In this document: positions 7,330 to 30,664 of the stretch, one piece after another
Position numbering within the stretch: the first letter of the stretch is position 1
Layout: each line of letters starts with the position of its first letter
IMG/VR virus record: IMGVR_UViG_2802429251_000007
Location: 1 to 30,664 of that record
Origin: a virus
Lineage: Duplodnaviria; Heunggongvirae; Uroviricota; Caudoviricetes
DNA length: 30,664 nt
Direction: 5' to 3' (one strand)
Position numbers and translations under genes: made by a program
Notes under the pieces: generated by a model
What the model saw: the letters and a program-made list of their open reading frames with translations, nothing else
The model's database searches: none
Told to the model about the DNA's origin: nothing

Positions 7330-7542
7330 TTAGCCTACCTTACGGTATGGATACACATTTTTAATGAATTGGTGAAAATACTGGCCTTTTGAACTGGCAT
7401 TCATAAGACCCTGATAGATCCTGGATGGAACACCAGAGTATTGATAGATACCTCCATTGTGAAAGGCTATTTCCAGTGTGAGAGTTGCTGAATCATACCC
7501 AACTGACTGGAGATTTGATGATGAAACATAATTACGAATCAA
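7330..7542 (-). CDS. KTSC-domain protein (70 aa)
   Basis: VSSSNLQSVGYDSATLTLEIAFHNGGIYQYSGVP...SKGQYF...YPY matches KTSC domain pattern; start is TTG with GAGGAT upstream; opposite strand to all flanking phage genes. Confidence 0.55.
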   Translation of the reverse strand: MIRNYVSSSNLQSVGYDSATLTLEIAFHNGGIYQYSGVPSRIYQGLMNASSKGQYFHQFIKNVYPYRKVG

Positions 7543-7697
7543 AACAATATCCTCATATTGTGGGGAAAAGTCCCAATGAAATTATTGATATATTTCGGCG
7601 TTATAACTTTGTCGATGATCATGGTCATCGTCTTGAAATGTGCCAGGACTTCATTGACTTAGTTAATGCGAAATCACAACAACATCAGGATGGTTAG
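7518..7697 (+). CDS. small hypothetical protein (59 aa)
   Basis: ATG 7518 with GGAG upstream; 5' end overlaps KTSC gene 5' end on the other strand; no family recognised. Confidence 0.3.
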   Translation: MMKHNYESKQYPHIVGKSPNEIIDIFRRYNFVDDHGHRLEMCQDFIDLVNAKSQQHQDG

Positions 7698-7754
7698 GCA
7701 TTACAGCAGCTCTTCTGTGAGGGGCTGCGATAATGTCACTAAGAGGAAAAATTC

Positions 7755-8504
7755 ATGGCAAAACCGGACTGGGAGGCCATCGAATCGGCATACCGGGCCG
7801 GAGTCCTTAGCCTCCGTGATATAGGCGAGAAATACGGCGTAACAGAAGGGGCTATCAGGAAGAGGGCTAAAAAGCTTGGTTGGGTACGCAGTGGCGGTAC
7901 GCAGGTTTGCAAAAATGGTACGCAAAAAAGAAAAGTGCGTACCAGCAGAAAGCCTGCCATTACTGACCTTACACAAAAAGGTACGCAACCAAAAACAGAA
8001 CCTACACCGGATACGAAACCGATACGCGGAATGCGTACCGATCCCCCGACTAACCCATTCCAACCCGGTAACCAGCAGGCATTAAAACACGGTGGTTATG
8101 CCCGTCGCCTTCTGCTCAAAGATGAGGTGATAGAGGATGCTAAAGCGTTGACGCTCGAGGACGAATTATTTCGCCTTCGTGCTAACAACCTTGTCGCTGC
8201 AGAGAATATTGGTCGGTGGTTGGTGTCGCTGGAAGATGCTAATGGGGACCAGGAAAGGAAGATGCTGATGGAAAATATCAGCGCCGCCGAGAAAGCAATG
8301 ATGCGCAATACAGTTCGTATTGAGTCCATCGTTGGCACGCTTGCGACGGTAGGAAAAATATTTGCTGATACAGCCTACCGCAAGGCCGCCACTGATAAGG
8401 TGTCTCTGGAGGCTGATCGTCTTCGCCGTGATGCAGGTATTGATGATGGCAATGGAGAGCGTGACCTCAATGACTTCTACTCTGACATCCAAACCGACGC
8501 TTAA
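7755..8504 (+). CDS. terminase small subunit
   Basis: N-terminal HTH-like segment (LSLRDIGEKYGVTEGAIRKRAKKLGW); immediately upstream of large terminase; GAGGA RBS. Confidence 0.7.
   Translation: MAKPDWEAIESAYRAGVLSLRDIGEKYGVTEGAIRKRAKKLGWVRSGGTQVCKNGTQKRKVRTSRKPAITDLTQKGTQPKTEPTPDTKPIRGMRTDPPTNPFQPGNQQALKHGGYARRLLLKDEVIEDAKALTLEDELFRLRANNLVAAENIGRWLVSLEDANGDQERKMLMENISAAEKAMMRNTVRIESIVGTLATVGKIFADTAYRKAATDKVSLEADRLRRDAGIDDGNGERDLNDFYSDIQTDA
7883..8039. repeat. cluster of six GGTACGCA/TGCGTACC octamers inside terS (candidate pac or terminase-binding site)
   Basis: Copies at 7883, 7896, 7917, 7980 (direct) and 7936, 8032 (inverted). Confidence 0.5.
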
Positions 8505-9873
8505 TCCGGCTTTACGTAGTTTCTGGACTACGCGGGCACGTAACAAAGTGCTTTATGGTGGCCGGTCATCGTCAAAATCATGGGATGCCGCTGGCATTGC
8601 CATATTTCTGTCGAATAAATACACCCTGCGTTTTTGTTGTGCCCGTCAGATCCAGAATAAAATCGAAGAGTCGGTGTATACCCTGCTCAAAATTCAGATA
8701 GACAGGTTTGGCCTGCGGCACCGTTTCCGGATTCTGAACAACAAAATCATTAACCGGGTTACTGGCTCGGAATTTGTTTTTTATGGATTATGGCGCAACA
8801 TCGAAGAAATTAAGTCACTGGAGGGGATCGACGTGTTGTGGCTGGAAGAAGCCCACGCACTGACTGAATACCAGTGGAAAATTCTGGAGCCAACGATCCG
8901 TAAAGAGGGTTCGGAATGCTGGTTCATATTCAACCCCGGACTTGTTACTGATTTCGTCTGGCGTAACTTCGTTGTTGATCCGCCTGAAGGCACTCTCATC
9001 CGCAAAATTAACTATGACGAAAATCCGTTTCTGTCTGACACCATGCTTAAGGTTATCGACGCGGCGCGACGCCGTGATCCGGATGGTTTTAAACATGTGT
9101 ATGAGGGCGTTCCGGAGTCTGATGATGATGCGGCAATCATCAAACTGTCCTGGATAGAAGCCGCAGTGGATGCGCACAAAACGTTAAATTTCGAACCCAG
9201 TGGAAGAAAGCGTATTGGCTTTGACGTGGCTGACAGTGGTACAGATAAGTGCGCTAACGTTTACCGTCACGGATCCGTTGTTTTCTGGGCCGACGAATGG
9301 AAGGCCAAAGAAGATGAATTACTGAAGAGCTGCCAGCGTACTTATCAGGCGGCGCTGGAGCGTGAAGCAGATATTGTTTACGACTCTATCGGTGTTGGTG
9401 CTTCTGCCGGTGCTAAATTCTCTGAAATTAACGCTGACCGGAAGAGCGAGAATGCATACGCGCGACGTGTGAATTACCAGAGGTTTAACGCCGGCGCTGG
9501 TGTGCATGAACCAGATGACGAATACAACGGCATCCCCAACAAAGACTTTTTCGCAAATCTTAAGGCTCAGGCATGGTGGCTGGTGGCTGACCGTTTCAGA
9601 AATACGTTTAACGCCATTAACAACGGAGAACAGTATCCTGTGGATGAGCTGATCAGCATAGATTCTCGTTGTCCGTTGCTTGAAAAGCTGAAACTGGAAC
9701 TGACAACACCTCATCGTGATTTCGACCGTAACGGACGTGTGATGGTCGAAAGTAAAAAAGACCTCGCAAAACGCGAGATACCGTCACCAAACGTTGCTGA
9801 CGCATTCATTATGGCCTTCGCGCCAATTGATACATCGCTGGATATCTGGGAACAGCTGGGGAGACAGGCCTGA
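8443..9873 (+). CDS. terminase large subunit
   Basis: Walker A-like YGGRSSSKS, ATPase and nuclease motifs by eye; start ambiguous (ATG at 8443, 8452 or 8470). Confidence 0.85.
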   Translation: MMAMESVTSMTSTLTSKPTLNPALRSFWTTRARNKVLYGGRSSSKSWDAAGIAIFLSNKYTLRFCCARQIQNKIEESVYTLLKIQIDRFGLRHRFRILNNKIINRVTGSEFVFYGLWRNIEEIKSLEGIDVLWLEEAHALTEYQWKILEPTIRKEGSECWFIFNPGLVTDFVWRNFVVDPPEGTLIRKINYDENPFLSDTMLKVIDAARRRDPDGFKHVYEGVPESDDDAAIIKLSWIEAAVDAHKTLNFEPSGRKRIGFDVADSGTDKCANVYRHGSVVFWADEWKAKEDELLKSCQRTYQAALEREADIVYDSIGVGASAGAKFSEINADRKSENAYARRVNYQRFNAGAGVHEPDDEYNGIPNKDFFANLKAQAWWLVADRFRNTFNAINNGEQYPVDELISIDSRCPLLEKLKLELTTPHRDFDRNGRVMVESKKDLAKREIPSPNVADAFIMAFAPIDTSLDIWEQLGRQA

Positions 9874-23734: not shown

Positions 23735-24487
23735 ATGGCAGTATCTGACCAGACCCGCAGCGGCGACCTTGCCGAAACATTTAAATCTGAACGGGAAACA
23801 ACAAAGAACCAGATCCGTGTCGCCTTGCCAGGCATTGTTCAGTCATTCGCTCCTGATGCGGTGACGGCGGTTGTACAGCCTGCTATCCGTTACGTTGAAA
23901 TTGATAACGACGGCAACCGCATTACCAAAAATTACCCATTGCTGGTGGATGTGCCAGTGGTATTCCCGCGTGGCGGAGGCTGTACGCTAACGTTTCCAGT
24001 TAAAGCCGGTGATGAATGCCTGGTGATTTTTGCCGATCGTTGTATTGATTTCTGGTGGCAGAGTGGCGGGATACAGGAGCCGGTCGATGACCGGGTGCAT
24101 GATTTATCGGATGCTTTCTGTATCGTCGGGCCGCAGTCTCAGGCGCAGAAAATAAGCGGAATAAGCACCAGTGGCGCGCAGCTGCGTAGTGACGACGGCA
24201 GCACCTATTTTGAGCTTAATCCTGATACCAGGAAAATTAAAATTGTCGCTCCGGGTGGTCTTGATGTGGTTGCCCCTCTGGCTGATTTTTCTGAGAAAGT
24301 AACCATTCATGGCCTGTTAACCTGGATGGGGGGCATGGTGGGGTCTGTTGTTTCTGGTGTGGCTTCAAAAATCACTGGTGCTGTTGAGTTTTTGGGTAGC
24401 GTGAAGGCTAACGGCAAGCTAATCGATGATACGCACACTCATGGTGGTGTTCAGCGCGGTGGAAGCAATACCGACGGAGTAAACTGA
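23735..24487 (+). CDS. putative baseplate spike/assembly protein V-like
   Basis: 250 aa, position; GGAG RBS. Confidence 0.45.
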   Translation: MAVSDQTRSGDLAETFKSERETTKNQIRVALPGIVQSFAPDAVTAVVQPAIRYVEIDNDGNRITKNYPLLVDVPVVFPRGGGCTLTFPVKAGDECLVIFADRCIDFWWQSGGIQEPVDDRVHDLSDAFCIVGPQSQAQKISGISTSGAQLRSDDGSTYFELNPDTRKIKIVAPGGLDVVAPLADFSEKVTIHGLLTWMGGMVGSVVSGVASKITGAVEFLGSVKANGKLIDDTHTHGGVQRGGSNTDGVN

Positions 24488-24840
24488 TGCGATACAGACG
24501 TGAAGACGCCGATGGCGATTACACCTTTGGCAGCGGTGATGATACCTGGCTGATTAACTCACCGGAGGCCGTGGCGCAGGCGGTAAAAACGCAATTCGAA
24601 TTGTGGTATGGGCAATGGTTTCTAGACACCACCGAAGGGACTCCGTGGATCCAGTCCGTACTCGGTAAGCAGAAGCCGGAAACCTACAATCTGGCGATCC
24701 GTAAGCGCATCCTCGAAACGCGGGGCGTTAAATCAATCCTCTCTTTCAATACTACAGTGGATACCACGACCCGACGTGTCATGTTTTCCGCTGAAATCGA
24801 CACTCTTTATGGAATAACGACTGTTACATCGGAGGCGTAA
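24487..24840 (+). CDS. putative baseplate wedge protein (gpW/gp25-like)
   Basis: 117 aa; ATGA overlap; position between spike-like and J-like genes. Confidence 0.4.
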   Translation: MRYRREDADGDYTFGSGDDTWLINSPEAVAQAVKTQFELWYGQWFLDTTEGTPWIQSVLGKQKPETYNLAIRKRILETRGVKSILSFNTTVDTTTRRVMFSAEIDTLYGITTVTSEA

Positions 24841-26039
24841 TGGCTCTGAACCTTGATTCTCTCGGTTTATCTGCAAAGGTAACCGCGGAGGGGATCAGTG
24901 CGCCTGATTATCAGACGATACTCAGCACCCTGATTGGCTATTTTCAGCAGATTTATGGCAGTGATGCCTACCTCGAACCGGACAGCAAAGACGGCCAGAT
25001 GGTGGCTCTGATGGCGCTGGCGATTCATGATGCCAATAATATGGCGATAACTGTCTACAACTGTTTTTCACCGGCAACCGGCTATGGGGCTGCACTGACC
25101 AGTAACGTGAAAATAAATGGTATTTCACGTAAAGGCGCAACGAATTCTACGGTTGATTTGCTTCTTACAGGAACTGCCGGAACAACCATCATTAATGGCA
25201 GCGTGAAAGACAGTAATAATGTGATATGGCGTTTGCCTGCTTCAGTGGTGGTCGGCGTGGATGGTACAGTGATGGCGACCGCAACATGTTCCGTCAGTGG
25301 TGCAGTGGCGGCGCTGGCTGGAACTATCACTGAAATTAATACGCCAACCCGTGGCTGGGTTTCGGTAACTAATCCTGCTGCGGCTACTGTGGGCACTCCG
25401 GCAGAAACTGACGCTGAGTTACGTATCCGCCAGTCGCAAAGTGTTGCGTTGCCATCAATAACCCCATTTGAAGCACTGGATGGTGCTGTTTCTAATGTTA
25501 CCGGTGTAACCCGCCACAAACTCTATGAAAACGATACTGGTTCGGAGGACGGTAACGGGTTACCGCCACACTCTGTTGCTGTAATTGTGGATGGCGGTGA
25601 TGTGACGGATATTGCTCAGGCTATCAGAGGGAATAAAGGCCAGGGGACAGCCACTCACGGTACAACATCCGTTACGGTTCCGGATAAATACGGCAATCCC
25701 CATGTAATCAAATTCTCGCGTTCCAGTGATGTACCTGTTTATGCCCGGATTAAATTAAAAGTTTTTACGGGTTATACCTCACAGATAGGGCAGCAGATCC
25801 AGCAGGCTATTTCCGGCTATATCAATAGTCTGATGATTGGTGATTCGGTCCTTTTAAGTCGCATTTACTCACCGGCGAATCTTGGCGTGGTGAGTGGCGG
25901 GAATGCACGCTATTACGATATTCAGGAACTGACGATTGGGAAATCCCCGGGGGCTTTGTCGTCATCAAACATTGATATCAGATACAACGAATCTGCGTCC
26001 TGTACCCCGGAAAATATCGTTATAACGGTGGAGTCATGA
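24840..26039 (+). CDS. baseplate J-like protein
   Basis: 399 aa; position and size consistent with Baseplate_J family. Confidence 0.6.
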   Translation: MALNLDSLGLSAKVTAEGISAPDYQTILSTLIGYFQQIYGSDAYLEPDSKDGQMVALMALAIHDANNMAITVYNCFSPATGYGAALTSNVKINGISRKGATNSTVDLLLTGTAGTTIINGSVKDSNNVIWRLPASVVVGVDGTVMATATCSVSGAVAALAGTITEINTPTRGWVSVTNPAAATVGTPAETDAELRIRQSQSVALPSITPFEALDGAVSNVTGVTRHKLYENDTGSEDGNGLPPHSVAVIVDGGDVTDIAQAIRGNKGQGTATHGTTSVTVPDKYGNPHVIKFSRSSDVPVYARIKLKVFTGYTSQIGQQIQQAISGYINSLMIGDSVLLSRIYSPANLGVVSGGNARYYDIQELTIGKSPGALSSSNIDIRYNESASCTPENIVITVES

Positions 26040-26716
26040 GCAAATACACCGAACTAATCACGAACTACCACGCCACCAAACCTAAATTTCTTGCGCATGT
26101 TGATCTGATGACCCGGCCACTTATTGATGTTGCGGCTGCCACCAGAGGGCTGATTACTGCATTTGATATTGACTCTGCGGTTGGTGTGCAACTTGACATT
26201 CTTGGATTGTGGATCGGACGTAGCCGTGTTGTCAGCCAGCCTATCTCAGGTGTCTATTTCAGCTGGGATACCGACGGGCTTGGATATGATCAGGGGGTAT
26301 GGCGGGGACCATACGATCCTGATTCAGGATACATGTATCTCAGCGATGAAACTTATCGTGTCATTCTTAAAGCGAAGATTGCGATTAATAACTGGGACGG
26401 ACGGAATGATTCGCTTCCGGCAATTCTTGACGCTGCAACAGCAGGATCCGGGCTGCGAATGCAGATAGTCGATAACCAGGACATGACGATATCGGTCTGG
26501 GTCTTTCCTGATACTGATATTTCAGATGTATCGCGTGAGTTAATTGCGGCAATTAAACAGGGGTATCTCACAGTTAAAGCCGCCGGGGTTTGGGCGGGTG
26601 ACATTGAAACACCTTCGGTGAAAACCCCATCGGAAGGCTCAAAATTTTTTGGTTTTGATATGGATAACGAATTTATCAGTGGTTTTGATGTAGGGGCATG
26701 GGGAGTATTACTCTGA
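26036..26716 (+). CDS. baseplate/tail protein I-like (DUF2313, YmfQ-like)
   Basis: 226 aa; position between J-like gene and tail fiber. Confidence 0.5.
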
Positions 26717-27792
26717 TGGCAAAAAATGACTTTAAAGCATTCGCAACGGGTAAAAATGCCAATGTTATGCCGCAGGAGGAATGGGAAGCGTTGCCTGCGC
26801 TTTTATCCGGATTTACAGCAGGGAAAGCATCCAGTGCGCAAGTCAATAAGGTTATTCGGCAGGCCAGCTTTATTGCATCTGCAATAGCACAATATACAGC
26901 AAATGAAAGTGGACTGGATGTACAGGACGATGGCGATCAGGCCGGCTTTATCGCAAAAATGTCGTCTGCATTAGATAAGAACTATCAGAGAATTAATGCC
27001 ATACTTACCGCACTTGCTAATCTTTCAGCATCCGAAAACAAATTACCGTATTTTACCAATCAAGATACCGCTAATTTGGCTGACCTGACACAGGTTGGGC
27101 GAGATATTTTGGCAAAAAGCTCTGTTGCTGATGTCCTTAAATATCTTGGTCTGGAAGATAATTCGACCTTTCCTGTAGGTGCCCCGATCCCGTGGCCATC
27201 AGATACAGTTCCATCTGGTTATGCTCTGATGCAGGGACAGACTTTTGACAAGTCTGCATACCCGAAACTTGCAGCCGCTTATCCGTCAGGCGTGATCCCT
27301 GATATGCGTGGCTGGACGATTAAGGGCAAGCCCGCCAGTGGTCGTGCCGTATTGTCTCAGGAACAGGACGGCATTAAATCGCACACCCACAGCGCCAGCG
27401 TATCCAGTACGGATTTGGGTACGAAAACCACATCGTCGTTTGATTACGGGACGAAAACAACCTCACTATTTGACTATGGGACCAAAACTACCAGTAACGC
27501 CGGGAGTCACACGCATTCAATACCAACATCAGATGGTGCAAACCAGGGGGGGAAAATTCCACTGACATCTGGGCGTCTGGCAACTCAATATACATCAGCA
27601 ACAACAGGTTCCTCTGGCTCACATTCTCATACTGTAGGTATTGGTTCTCATCAGCACACTGTCGGTATTGGTGCACACACGCACTCCGTTGCGATTGGTT
27701 CACATGGACACACCATCACCGTTAACGCTGCTGGTAACGCGGAAAACACCGTCAAAAACATCGCATTTAACTATATTGTGAGGCTCGCATAA
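26716..27792 (+). CDS. side tail fiber protein
   Basis: ATG 26716 overlaps upstream stop (TGATG); C-terminal HxH repeats [34 protein letters not shown]; followed by tail fiber assembly gene. Confidence 0.75.
27418..27501 (+). repeat. 30-nt tandem repeats inside tail fiber gene (GTKTTS-x-FDY, about 2.8 units)
   Basis: Read directly from sequence. Confidence 0.7.
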
Positions 27793-28370
27793 TGGAATTC
27801 AGAATGAGTGAACAACCACAGACCATAAAAATTTATAATCTGCTGGCCGGAACTAATGAATTTATTGGTGAAGGTGATGCATACATTCCACCTCATACAG
27901 GTCTGCCAGCAAACAGTACCGATATTGCACCGCCAGATATTCCGGCTGGCTTCGTGGCTGTTTTCAACACTGATGAGGCATCGTGGCATCTCGTTGAAGA
28001 CCATCGGGGTAAAACCGTCTATGACGTGGCTTCCGGCGACGCGTTATTTATTTCTGAACTTGGCCCATTACCGGAAAATGTCACCTGGTTATCCCCGGAA
28101 GGGGAGTTTCAGAAGTGGAACGGTACATCTTGGGTGAAAGATGCAGAAGCAGAAAAACTGTTTCGGAGCCAGGAGGCGGAAGAAACAAAAAACAGCCTGA
28201 TGCAGGTAGCTAGCGAGCATATTGCGCCACTTCAGGATGCTGTAGATTTGGATATTGCGACGGAAGAAGAGGCATCGTTACTGGCTGCATGGAAGACATA
28301 TCGGGTATTGTTGAATCGTGTTGATACAACAGTAGCAGCGGATATTGAGTGGCCAGTCGCCCCACAATAA
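27792..28370 (+). CDS. tail fiber assembly protein (Tfa)
   Basis: C-terminal [18 protein letters not shown]...WP..P typical of Tfa chaperones; directly after tail fiber. Confidence 0.8.
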
Positions 28371-28379
28371 AAAGAAAAA

Positions 28380-28406
28380 GCCATCGATAGAAATATCGAT
28401 GGCTTT
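28380..28406. terminator. bidirectional hairpin between convergent Tfa and acetyltransferase genes
   Basis: GCCATCGATA-GAAA-TATCGATGGC with T-rich flanks on both strands. Confidence 0.6.
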
Positions 28407-28413
28407 ATGTGCT

Positions 28414-28986
28414 CTATTTATACAATACAACACCGCTCTTTTTAGTTATATATGTGCAGTTCGATGGTATATCTTTATTTATAAAAGACATTGCGCCTAT
28501 TTTTACATTATCCCCAATTTTACGTGATAATCCAATGATGCAACAATTAGCTCCGATATCAACGTTACTACCAATTTTTACTCTTGAACCAGGTATGTCA
28601 CCATCTATCTGTCCAATCGTAGTATTCTGTCGTAACACCAGATTTTCACCAGCATCAACAGCAAAATGAACAACAATTCCAGCGTGATGGGGAATTGTTA
28701 GCCCTTTTCCAATTTTTGCTCCCAGTCCAATCTCGCAACCAAATTTGTTAATTATTTTATTGTTTAACTTTTTAGCAGCTTTCTTATGTAATTTATTACC
28801 ATTAATATACATTTCGTTAGCCAGCCGCCACCAGAAAAGGAAATTCCTGTTACGTTGTTTTTTTTCTCTGAAAAGCCTCCAGATATCCATATACTCCCGC
28901 CGTATTACTTCAGATTTCCAAAAGCTTTTTAAATCAGAAGAATTCCCAAGTAAAACAAAATGAATTGCTATTAAGTAAGATAACAC
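28414..28986 (-). CDS. hexapeptide-repeat acetyltransferase (CysE/WcaB-like)
   Basis: IGLGAKIGKGLTIPHHAGIVV...IGQIDGD...KIGSNVDIGANCCIIG hexapeptide repeats; GTG start with AAGGAG 6 nt upstream; visibly AT-rich. Confidence 0.7.
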   Translation of the reverse strand: MLSYLIAIHFVLLGNSSDLKSFWKSEVIRREYMDIWRLFREKKQRNRNFLFWWRLANEMYINGNKLHKKAAKKLNNKIINKFGCEIGLGAKIGKGLTIPHHAGIVVHFAVDAGENLVLRQNTTIGQIDGDIPGSRVKIGSNVDIGANCCIIGLSRKIGDNVKIGAMSFINKDIPSNCTYITKKSGVVLYK

Positions 28987-29138
28987 GATAATCTCCTTAA
29001 TTATTACTTTCGACCATATTAGCCCTAAATTTAATGAAGTGTAAAATCTGGTTGTTTGTTATTTAAAAGCTAAGTTCGTGATACTTTACGGATGCTGAGG
29101 AGAGCATTATACGATATTTTTCTGCACACTCATAGTAA

Positions 29139-29267
29139 CAAACACCAGAACAATGGGCGCAGGCCGGGCGATTAATTGCATCAGGCGTTCCTCGCCAGAA
29201 GGTGGCTATTATCTATGATGTTGGTGTGTCAACTTTGTATAAGAGGTTTCCGGTCGGAGATAAATGA
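29139..29267 (+). pseudogene. 3' remnant of pin/gin/hin-family DNA invertase gene (C-terminal HTH only)
   Basis: QTPEQWAQAGRLIASGVPRQKVAIIYDVGVSTLYKRFPVGDK matches invertase C-terminal HTH; stop codon directly upstream in frame, no catalytic domain. Confidence 0.65.
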
Positions 29268-29562
29268 AACCGTAGCACGTCGTATGCAAGAACGTGCCAC
29301 GGCTGGCTGATGGACGTTCGATAGCGCGAGTTTGAATGAAAATCAGCCGGCGATGATTTTACATAATTGCTACGGAATTATTCAATACAGGAATTGCTTG
29401 TGTATGCATGGATTGACCTGAAATATTCCCGAAAATTTCTCTAAAAAACTCGAAAAAAATGGTAACTAATTGAATGCATTGGTATGCAATGCTATGTGTT
29501 CAGGATTGAAAAATGCGCGCTTTTTTATTTAATATATTGATTTTAAATGATTTTATTTCTCG

Positions 29563-29595
29563 TTGACGAATACAGGAATCGTGTTCGGTCTCTTT
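29563..29595 (+). ncRNA. sdsR: 3' end/terminator of sdsR (ryeB)-like small RNA (remnant or att-reconstituted)
   Basis: GACGAATACAGGAATCGTGTTCGGTCTCTTTTT matches remembered SdsR 3' hairpin (one G/A difference); upstream sequence does not match the SdsR body. Confidence 0.45.
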
Positions 29596-29731
29596 TTATC
29601 TGTTAAAAGCCAGAAGCATTCCCTTCGCTGACTTTATAGTCAACCATAACACACACTCTACTGTCTGAGTCCAGCGTTTTTTAACATTCTTGTTAAGATT
29701 ATGTGATCTTTAGCGCGGGAGGAAAATATTG

Positions 29732-30388
29732 ATGAAACAGCCTGCGCCCGTTTATCAGAGAGTTGCGGGTCATCAATGGCGACATATCTGGCTTTCAGGC
29801 GATATACACGGTTGTCTTGAGCAGTTGCGCCGCAAATTATGGCATTGTCGTTTTGATCCGTGGCGAGATTTACTTATCTCAGTGGGAGACGTTATCGATC
29901 GTGGGCCGCAAAGTTTACGTTGCCTGCAGTTACTGGAACAACATTGGGTTCGTGCGGTAAGAGGCAATCATGAACAGATGGCGATGGATGCGCTGGCATC
30001 CCAGCAGATGTCATTGTGGTTGATGAATGGCGGCGACTGGTTTATTGCGCTGGCAGATAATCAACAGAAACAAGCGAAAACGGCGCTGGAAAAATGTCAG
30101 TATTTGCCCTTTATTCTTGAAGTACACAGTCGCACCGGCAAACATGTTATTGCCCATGCCGATTATCCGGATGATGTTTATGAATGGCAAAAGGACGTCG
30201 ATTTGCATCAGGTCTTGTGGAGCCGCTCACGATTACGTGAAGGCCAAAAAGGGCAGGGAATTACAGGTGCTGATCATTTCTGGTTTGGTCATACACCGTT
30301 GCGCCATCGCGTGGATATTGGCAACCTGCATTATATTGATACCGGTGCTGTCTTTGGGGGAGAACTGACTCTTGTGCAATTGCAATAA
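29732..30388 (+). CDS. pphA: serine/threonine protein phosphatase 1 (PPP family)
   Basis: GDIHG, GDVIDRG, GNHE metallophosphatase motifs; sequence recalled as E. coli PrpA; GGGAGG upstream of ATG 29732. Confidence 0.8.
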   Translation: MKQPAPVYQRVAGHQWRHIWLSGDIHGCLEQLRRKLWHCRFDPWRDLLISVGDVIDRGPQSLRCLQLLEQHWVRAVRGNHEQMAMDALASQQMSLWLMNGGDWFIALADNQQKQAKTALEKCQYLPFILEVHSRTGKHVIAHADYPDDVYEWQKDVDLHQVLWSRSRLREGQKGQGITGADHFWFGHTPLRHRVDIGNLHYIDTGAVFGGELTLVQLQ

Positions 30389-30580
30389 TTAAAAATCACC
30401 GTACTCCTGTGCAGGTCGCCAGAAACCATCTATAAAATCCTCAATCGGAAAACAACCGCCATGGCGGATCCGTTGATCGCTCATAGAATAAAGACACTGT
30501 TGTTCCGTGTTGTAGACATCCACAACAATATCTTCACAACCGCCATCCAGGTAGCAAACAAAAAGTACCAGCGCGAACAT
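30389..30580 (-). CDS. yebW: YebW-like small protein (63 aa)
   Basis: MFALVLFVCYLDGGCEDIVVDVYNTEQQCLYSMSDQRIRHGGCFPIEDFIDGFWRPAQEYGDF recalled as YebW; convergent with and abutting pphA; ORF-track entry has an N-terminal extension. Confidence 0.65.
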   Translation of the reverse strand: MFALVLFVCYLDGGCEDIVVDVYNTEQQCLYSMSDQRIRHGGCFPIEDFIDGFWRPAQEYGDF

Positions 30581-30664
30581 TTCATCCCCGAAGTGTGGTG
30601 CCGTACCGTTAAGTTTAGGAGAGATTTTACAACGGGGGAATAACCAGGACAAATAACCCGCCAT

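Follow-up and report, generated by a model that had tools for sequence, protein, structure and literature searches.

Why would a prophage carry a small, AT-rich acetyltransferase gene on the strand opposite its tail genes, at the very position where a related phage keeps an invertible tail-fibre module? The question is raised by 30,664 nucleotides of tailed-phage DNA (Caudoviricetes; IMG/VR record IMGVR_UViG_2802429251_000007), referred to here in its full length as the window, in which an acetyltransferase gene (28414–28986, minus strand) follows, and is convergent with, the tail fibre assembly gene tfa. The best explanation of the sequence comparisons described below is that the gene is a functional moron with its own ribosome-binding site, terminator and probable promoter. 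It would have arrived within a fibre cassette that displaced a Pin-type inversion module, and the genomic contexts of its relatives point to a surface glycan as the probable substrate.

The acetyltransferase and its gene

The gene and the signals that surround it are the following:

28414–28986, minus strand: acetyltransferase open reading frame (ORF; 'sacF', RefSeq 'serine acetyltransferase', phrog_2154), 190 residues, soluble left-handed β-helix (LbH) type
28993–28998, minus strand: Shine-Dalgarno sequence AAGGAG, 6 nt upstream of the GTG start
28377–28406, no strand assigned: hairpin with a 13-bp GC/AT stem between the convergent tfa and acetyltransferase genes (terminator scan and fold)
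29016–29045, minus strand: sigma-70-like promoter candidate TTTACA-18-TAATAT (promoter scan, prediction only)

The first-pass annotation of this region had proposed a CysE/WcaB-like LbH acetyltransferase, and profile searches, structure prediction and structural comparison agree with this. The protein matches the Pfam Hexapep model (E=4.7e-6) with 26.5 bits, just below the gathering score of 27. Its top NCBIfam matches are EpsC (NF041874; 75.1 bits against a cut-off of 150), CysE (TIGR01172, 62.3 bits against 210.65; NF008349, 40.2 against 397) and the WcaB family TIGR04016/NF007564 (TIGR04016, 53.1 bits against 194.65), every one of them under its curated cut-off. In PHROGs it matches phrog_2154 alone, which is labelled 'unknown function'. 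A HMMER search of 1.84 billion representatives recovered 17 clusters at E≤1e-30 and 360 at E≤1e-10, so the family is compact inside the very large LbH superfamily. The AlphaFold2 (AF2) model, a monomer built on 43 homologues, has a mean predicted local distance difference test score (pLDDT) of 95.4 and consists of five N-terminal helices followed by a left-handed β-helix, with regular short strands from residue ~85 onwards. The top PDB matches found by Foldseek are all serine acetyltransferases (template modelling score ~0.7, probability 1.0).

In the HMMER alignment to the Neisseria and soybean CysE proteins, His100 corresponds to the catalytic histidine and Glu85 to the dyad's aspartate. At least 90% of the 43 homologues keep His100, and each of the 22 members displayed in the alignment has D or E where Glu85 stands. 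E. coli WcaB is 35% identical over 109 residues of the β-helix and has the E-I...H-H motif in common with the protein. From its sequence and modelled fold, with the catalytic pair intact, the product is concluded to be an active O-acetyltransferase of the CysE/WcaB structural class.

CysE binds serine through the aspartate that precedes the catalytic histidine and through an Arg-His pair in the acceptor loop. At the aligned positions the protein has Pro99, Ser134 and Arg135, and among the homologues this loop differs in both length and sequence. The protein has 190 residues compared with 273 in CysE, is 80–100 residues shorter than CysE proteins and is without their long N-domain. The C-terminal tail of CysE, which ends in isoleucine, docks CysK; the protein encoded in the window ends in SGVVLYK, and the C-termini of its homologues are not conserved. 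As the serine-binding residues are replaced and the scores lie far under the CysE, WcaB and EpsC cut-offs, the RefSeq name 'serine acetyltransferase' is probably wrong. Searches for other functional classes gave no match to the Acyl_transf_3 domain in Pfam, no NeuO or OatWY chain among the 30 PDB sequence matches at E≤1e-3, no family at E≤0.1 among the PADLOC-DB v2 defence models, and no similarity to xenobiotic (Vat/CatB) hexapeptide acetyltransferases in the NCBIfam results.

The ORF runs from a GTG start (28986–28984) to a TAG stop. The strong Shine-Dalgarno sequence reported for the opposite strand in the first pass is present, and AAGGAG is kept in four other contexts, among them the prophage of E. 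coli 2014C-3061 (L001), a lambdoid prophage (L099) and a P2-like prophage (L002); both this sequence and the position of the start codon are conserved between phage contexts, with sequences further upstream differing. The foreign, AT-rich composition that had been suspected is borne out by computation: GC content is 0.342 in the ORF (0.277 at third codon positions) versus 0.501 in the whole window, and tfa and the fibre gene have 0.47.

The hairpin begins 7 nt past the tfa stop codon (28368–28370) and ends 8 nt past the acetyltransferase stop codon. Its folding energy is −19.5 kcal/mol (z −7.1 and −7.5 on the two strands), and none of 200 shuffled sequences folds equally well. It had been described as bidirectional, which holds for its geometry between two convergent genes; the U-run is found on the acetyltransferase strand only, so the hairpin is a canonical terminator for the acetyltransferase and at best a weak one for tfa. 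Upstream of the gene, P2-like copies have a candidate promoter of their own, TTGAAT-17-TATAAT, slightly upstream in the aligned region and identified as a consensus match only. There are no tandem repeats of the NeuO-like phase-variation type within 28300–29300. An Rfam scan of 27500–30664 gave a Qrr-like match at 28371–28491 (29 bits, E 0.013; gathering score 50) and one to CssrB at 29241–29301 (30 bits; gathering score 76), both of which are attributed to chance.

The gene is already annotated in RefSeq and is not peculiar to the window: it is present in 530 of 5426 complete E. coli genomes, where megablast located it at 599 places, 66 of them on plasmids and always at full length. Carrier strains include O157:H7 (EDL933), O111:H8, O111:H21, O104:H4, O22:H8 and O26. 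Between four phage contexts dN/dS is 0.05–0.17, the ORF is intact in every context examined, and the β-helix is almost invariant, with substitutions clustering in the first 45 residues. The ORF is also intact in CP-933T, the decayed prophage of EDL933 (L109, 10367–18725). By these substitution patterns, the gene is under purifying selection. CP-933T itself belongs to the P2 family; its fibre gene is cut and replaced by IS3, its tape-measure gene is frameshifted and its gene D, next to IS30, is truncated.

The inversion module and the fibre cassette

The features needed to place the gene within the prophage are the following:

26877–29141, no strand assigned: replacement block relative to the prophage L098 (blastn of the window against L098)
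27171–27791, plus strand: C-terminal receptor-binding, StfR-like part of the tail fibre gene 26698–27792, left end of the shared cassette
27792–28370, plus strand: tail fibre assembly (chaperone) gene tfa, TfaQ/TfaR type (ORF list; RefSeq annotation of the near-identical L001)
29142–29267, plus strand: pinE-type invertase remnant, last 42 codons, comprising the C-terminal helix-turn-helix and ending in EQWAQAGRLIASGVPRQKVAIIYDVGVSTLYKRFPVGDK before the stop (nucleotide and amino acid identity)
29567–29597, plus strand: prophage/host junction, with K-12 homology from 29567 inside sdsR/ryeA (blastn to MG1655 1920500–1925000)

The expectation that the gene occupies the place of a fibre inversion module is confirmed by comparison with E. 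coli E423 (L098), which holds a prophage of the same type at the same sdsR/pphA chromosomal site, with a complete module. The order in L098 is fibre(+), tfa(+), tfa'(−), fibre-tip'(−), a 555-bp pinE(+) and then pphA, with crossover sites (AAACCTTGGTTT core) at 6753–6777 and 8486–8510, one at each end of the invertible segment. By blastn the window matches L098 over 24427–26876 (97%) and 29142–30664 (95%), with nothing between; since homology is found on both flanks only, the block 26877–29141 is a replacement. On this alignment, the replacement took away the variable part of the fibre, the two chaperone genes, the pair of crossover sites and ~143 codons from the start of pinE, and brought a fixed fibre end, a single tfa and the acetyltransferase, which is missing from L098 between sequences that are otherwise 95–97% identical.

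The 42 codons of pinE left in the window are preceded by an in-frame TAA and are without the catalytic N-terminal domain. They have 89–94% nucleotide identity to pinE of many genomes, including that of e14 in MG1655, and 66% amino acid identity to Cin of the P1-like phage-plasmid JL22, and RefSeq labels the remnant a truncated pseudogene in both L001 and L099. The real breakpoint, at 29141/29142 by the pinE 3′ end, lies within 3 nt of the end of the region as first annotated (29138). No crossover-site motif (AAACCNNGGTTT core) occurs in the replaced region of the window, and neither the ORF list nor the comparison with L098 reveals an alternative inverted fibre/tfa set in the window. With no crossover sites, alternative fibre or invertase catalytic domain, the switch is, as read from the DNA, dead in the window, and the locus illustrates cleanly how a fixed fibre cassette with a cargo gene can overwrite a fibre inversion switch. 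The acetyltransferase gene sits between tfa and the host junction, as the first-pass annotation had it, with K-12 homology starting at 29567 and pphA following at 29729–30388.

The cassette spans 27171–28985/29068. Its left end is a conserved fibre motif at 27171, and it comprises the fibre C-terminus, tfa, a spacer of 43 bp that contains the hairpin, and the acetyltransferase gene. It is found in P2-like, P1-like and lambdoid prophages: the block held in common extends over 27171–29068 in the P2-like L002 and 27171–28985 in the P1-like JL22 (L003), at ~87.5% identity, and the spacing between tfa and the acetyltransferase gene is identical in all E. coli contexts. In P2-family prophages the acetyltransferase gene has the chaperone gene on one side and tail genes on the other, and is joined to the gpU gene in 495 genomes. 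In the lambdoid prophage L099, from an O111:H21 strain, the order is J-lom-stf-tfa-acetyltransferase-pinE remnant, and the junction between the last two is identical to that of the window, so the deletion junction itself moved between phage types.

JL22 and ~35 similar plasmids also carry the gene. In JL22 (3752–9215) the invertible C segment, flanked by 602-bp inverted repeats and with cin adjacent, has the gene in its unique centre, between two convergent alternative fibre cassettes; DNA inversion therefore flips the gene's orientation relative to the rest of the genome. Read-through into the gene from the alternative fibre operon was considered and is unlikely, given the hairpin after U' and the ~480 bp of AT-rich DNA ahead of the gene.

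Several further observations concern the prophage and its integration site. A 14-nt inverted repeat (27025–27038 and 29085–29098, 13 of 14 positions complementary) brackets the fibre-tfa-acetyltransferase block; its left arm falls within the N-terminal portion of the fibre gene, its right arm ~45 nt ahead of the pinE remnant. The repeat does not contain the AAACC..GGTTT crossover core and may be a relic of an inverted fibre segment or due to chance. The prophage is integrated in the bidirectional sdsR/ryeA small-RNA locus upstream of pphA, and position 29567 falls in the 3′ terminator part of sdsR. Sub-threshold Rfam SdsR/RyeA matches (30–32 bits) at 29502–29601 cover the phage-side segment 29502–29566, and the phage end may rebuild a shortened small RNA-like sequence there. 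The Rfam 'IS009' match at 28135–28333 on the plus strand (189 bits against a gathering score of 117) lies wholly within the tfa coding sequence, and the family appears here to model a conserved piece of prophage tfa and not a separate RNA gene. The nearest relative of the window prophage, L001 (2472–5422), is 98% identical over 26000–29311 and sits elsewhere in the chromosome, near yfhH/tadA; frameshifts affect its baseplate J and fibre genes, and its acetyltransferase gene is intact.

Substrate, function and rival explanations

Clues to the substrate come from relatives: across 79 species-level loci, chromosomal homologues are found repeatedly within groups of lipopolysaccharide (LPS) genes. 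In a Zophobihabitans chromosome, a homologue that is 43% identical over its full length stands in a row with a polysaccharide pyruvyltransferase gene and a glycosyltransferase family 25 (GT25) gene, the latter annotated as 'LPS biosynthesis', and this row adjoins two GT9 heptosyltransferase genes. In five Halopseudomonas/Pseudomonas genomes, the homologue lies between hldE/msbA and a nonulosonic-acid cluster, and its neighbours include matches to Kdo/WaaP-type kinases. A Xenorhabdus prophage with the same baseplate type as the window has the order integrase(−), acetyltransferase(+), GT25(+) and convergent tail fibre/baseplate genes, which is the classical position of conversion genes. No cys genes adjoin the homologues in the neighbourhoods examined. 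Judged from these contexts, a surface glycan is the best-supported class of substrate, in keeping with the surface-polysaccharide precursor put forward in the first pass; the conversion or receptor masking that was put forward with it can only be inferred.

As to the form of the acceptor, the K-12 annotation of wcaE, next to wcaB, names a 2/3-O-acetyl-Fuc-Glc-PP-Und acceptor, which places acetylation in that pathway on an intermediate linked to undecaprenyl diphosphate (Und-PP), in the cytoplasm. Because the carriers span many O types, a target specific to one O unit is unlikely, and a conserved structure such as the LPS core, enterobacterial common antigen (ECA) or colanic acid is more plausible.

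The association with tail-fibre genes extends well beyond E. coli. A convergent tfa is directly downstream of the homologue in 64 of 79 IMG/VR loci, including clades at 69, 65, 61 and 43% identity; in a further IMG/VR clade at 53% identity the homologue is co-directional and comes right after the fibre genes. The convergent arrangement is also seen in Gilliamella, Buttiauxella, Orbaceae, Salmonella and Photorhabdus genomes, and in Buttiauxella the homologue occupies the slot between the P2 G and FI genes. In the P2-family prophages L100–L102 (5617–6605), a 69%-identical homologue is accompanied by a second, truncated tfa and by a gene for a class-I methyltransferase; with several extras after tfa, the slot accumulates several cargo genes.

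The proposal that we prefer, and to which we give an even chance, is that the moron O-acetylates an envelope-glycan precursor, probably the LPS core, leading to lysogenic conversion or receptor masking. It builds on what is directly supported: the integrity of the gene and the selection on it, the fold, the catalytic residues, the loss of the CysE substrate residues and the mobility, together with the displacement of the inversion module, the fibre synteny and the LPS-core neighbourhoods of chromosomal relatives. From these we infer expression in the lysogen, the acceptor and the phenotype. The cassette of fibre tip, tfa and acetyltransferase would have recombined in and displaced the Pin-type module, and the gene would be expressed from the prophage, probably via its own promoter. 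The product, presumably a soluble trimeric enzyme dependent on acetyl-CoA, would work on the cytoplasmic face of the inner membrane, where it would O-acetylate a sugar in an intermediate of an envelope glycan. The acceptor would most probably be the LPS core before flipping by MsbA, the alternatives being Und-PP-linked O-unit, ECA or colanic-acid intermediates. An altered phage receptor or antigen could then result in lysogenic conversion, superinfection exclusion or the shielding of progeny from re-adsorption; the pay-off would be that core-binding phages are excluded and/or progeny protected, with side effects on host immunity possible.

The specific version in which acetylation of the LPS core masks a receptor is put forward only tentatively. 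The same reserve applies to the wider idea that phrog_2154 constitutes a new class of conversion enzymes, namely soluble, single-gene LPS-core O-acetyltransferases that act in any serotype and are welded to fibre cassettes, which we regard as possible but rather doubtful. If it were true, receptor specificity and receptor masking would be swapped together among P2-like, P1-like, lambdoid and other myovirus-type prophages, and ~10% of the complete E. coli genomes searched, including O157:H7 EDL933, would bear a phage-imposed core modification affecting phage susceptibility and possibly innate immune recognition. Action on the LPS core would give prophages a serotype-independent way to re-tune receptor availability, and would matter for host-range prediction in phage therapy, for the receptor biology of P1/P2/Mu-type phages and for LPS-based typing of Shiga toxin-producing E. 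coli. The gene is common and under purifying selection and survives in decayed prophages, and it probably goes under the wrong name.

Several points weigh against the envelope-glycan proposal. The glycan link by neighbourhood rests on relatives that are only 43–49% identical, and carriage across many O types argues against an O-unit target yet does not prove a core target. The tfa type is present in 4680 of 5426 genomes and the StfR-like tip type in 3900, mostly without the acetyltransferase. Relatives are also found away from fibre genes, on plasmids, at a prophage end, in an island and at a chromosomal site; these include a conserved chromosomal site in Rahnella and a Salmonella island in which a member of the 51–63% identity group lies beside an integrase gene. 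Given such relatives, the adjacency to fibre genes may be hitch-hiking. The acetyltransferase promoters, in the window and in P2-like copies alike, are consensus matches only. Finally, a full-text literature search returned no functional study of the family, only annotations and passing remarks: the gene in JL22 was remarked on and its presence left unexplained (PMC9603915), and in the Citrobacter rodentium phage NP it was listed as 'fitness' cargo (PMC6456863). The main text of an O157:H7 proteome paper that names CP-933T makes no statement on the acetyltransferase.

Linkage of the gene to a private fibre-tip allele was considered and rejected, given 3900 genomes with the tip and 4680 with tfa versus 530 with the acetyltransferase. 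On the bfp/EAF plasmids of enteropathogenic E. coli (L008–L011), a 51%-identical homologue at 5001–5594 has no phage genes nearby and lies ~2.3 kb downstream of the bundle-forming-pilus genes, amid IS66 fragments. In L004–L007 (4662–5573; 594 blocks of the assembly collection), a 56%-identical homologue is the last gene of a different prophage, with a hok/gef-type toxin gene as its neighbour and a copA-like host gene for a P-type heavy-metal ATPase directly adjoining.

Among the rival explanations, two survive best, and we consider each of them improbable without being negligible. In the first, the enzyme is a glycan acetyltransferase whose link to the fibre genes is pure hitch-hiking: a moron would have inserted a single time, 44 bp from tfa, and been carried along with every recombination of fibre cassettes since. 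The benefit would be directed at the host (serum, immune or bile resistance, or biofilm formation) and have no bearing on the receptor used by the phage. The excess of tip and tfa carriers over acetyltransferase carriers, the invariable spacing from tfa in E. coli, the homologues without fibre genes and the retention of the gene in the defective CP-933T are all in line with this. Against it stands synteny with tfa and fibre genes that persists down to 43% protein identity and in at least four phage architectures, which exceeds the expectation for a neutral neighbour. The llp gene of T5 also adjoins a receptor-binding gene. The same is true of the analogous NeuO (PMC3046976).

In the second, the target is intracellular and not a glycan (a signal, nucleotide, antibiotic or protein), so that the gene would serve exclusion, anti-defence or resistance and its link to the fibre would be positional. 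The slot after the fibre chaperone gene G is where P2 itself carries its Z/fun accessory gene. That this P2-type slot holds the acetyltransferase, that other morons such as the methyltransferase of L100 use it too, and that relatives occur on plasmids and islands beside toxin-antitoxin genes would fit such a role. The protein, however, matches no PADLOC defence model and has no similarity to Vat/CatB in the NCBIfam results, its closest characterised relatives all acetylate hydroxyls of small polar acceptors or sugars, and its chromosomal relatives are embedded in LPS loci.

That the protein is a genuine serine O-acetyltransferase, an auxiliary metabolic gene raising O-acetylserine/cysteine or escaping cysteine feedback, we hold to be very unlikely. 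CysE proteins are its top matches in sequence and structure, and both RefSeq and the JL22 annotation name it accordingly, but the TIGR01172 and NF008349 scores, the replaced serine-binding residues, the variable acceptor loop and the missing N-domain and CysK-docking isoleucine tail, all described above, speak against it, and relatives neighbour LPS or phage genes, never cys genes. A decaying remnant without current function, as its place beside a truncated invertase pseudogene at the prophage end and the frameshifted fibre and baseplate genes of L001 might suggest, is scarcely credible for a gene with an intact frame in all contexts examined, low dN/dS, a near-invariant β-helix, a conserved Shine-Dalgarno sequence and terminator, and a very high AF2 confidence.

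Comparison with known systems

The locus occupies the same genomic slot as the Gin, Cin and Pin modules (Mu G, P1 C and e14 P segments) and retains a pinE 3′ remnant; it differs from them in that the switch is dead in the window, whereas all parts of the module are present in L098. With CysE, its top structural match, the enzyme shares the two-domain architecture and the catalytic histidine/acid pair, but it is much shorter, is without the serine-binding residues and the CysK-docking tail, and scores below the family cut-offs. WcaB is likewise a short, CysE-like soluble enzyme with a related β-helix and the same E...HH active-site motif; the N-terminal domains of the two do not align, and WcaB is encoded in the wca cluster, in contrast to the prophage location of the gene in the window.

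The converters known from phages of Enterobacteria are membrane proteins of the Gtr/Oac type that act on the O antigen, or the K1-specific NeuO. Oac of Sf6 and the acyltransferase-3 proteins OafA/GtrC resemble the present case in that LPS acetylation is phage-borne and serves lysogenic conversion, and the gene is near the tail/attachment end of the prophage. They are polytopic membrane proteins working on the periplasmic side, in contrast to the soluble, 190-residue LbH protein described here. By analogy, llp of T5, which adjoins the gene of the receptor-binding protein pb5, and cor of lambdoid phages (for Cor, see PMC12373910) may also be compared, since their proposed role is to protect the lysogen or progeny by disabling the phage's own receptor and they lie beside the adsorption apparatus. 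Their products, which bind a protein receptor, are membrane proteins or small lipoproteins, whereas the product in the window is predicted to be an enzyme.

A precedent in biology is NeuO, encoded by CUS-3, a P22-like prophage of E. coli K1: a soluble LbH polysialic-acid O-acetyltransferase of known structure (PMC3046976), whose acetylation of the K1 capsule protects K1 cells from K1 phage (PMC13001214). The first-pass annotation held that a cytoplasmic type of enzyme would set this gene apart from the known converters, which overlooked NeuO, already a known case of surface conversion by a soluble LbH O-acetyltransferase that a prophage carries. NeuO and the protein in the window are alike in being prophage-borne, soluble, acetyl-CoA-dependent LbH enzymes with a catalytic histidine, encoded beside genes of the adsorption organelle. 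They differ in fold subclass, NeuO belonging to another LbH subfamily without a CysE-like helical N-domain, and in expression, NeuO being phase-variable by heptanucleotide repeats at its 5′ end, of which there are none at the window gene. They differ also in likely target, the NeuO substrate (K1 polysialic acid) being limited to K1 strains whereas the window gene spans many serotypes, and in the behaviour of the family as part of a mobile fibre cassette.

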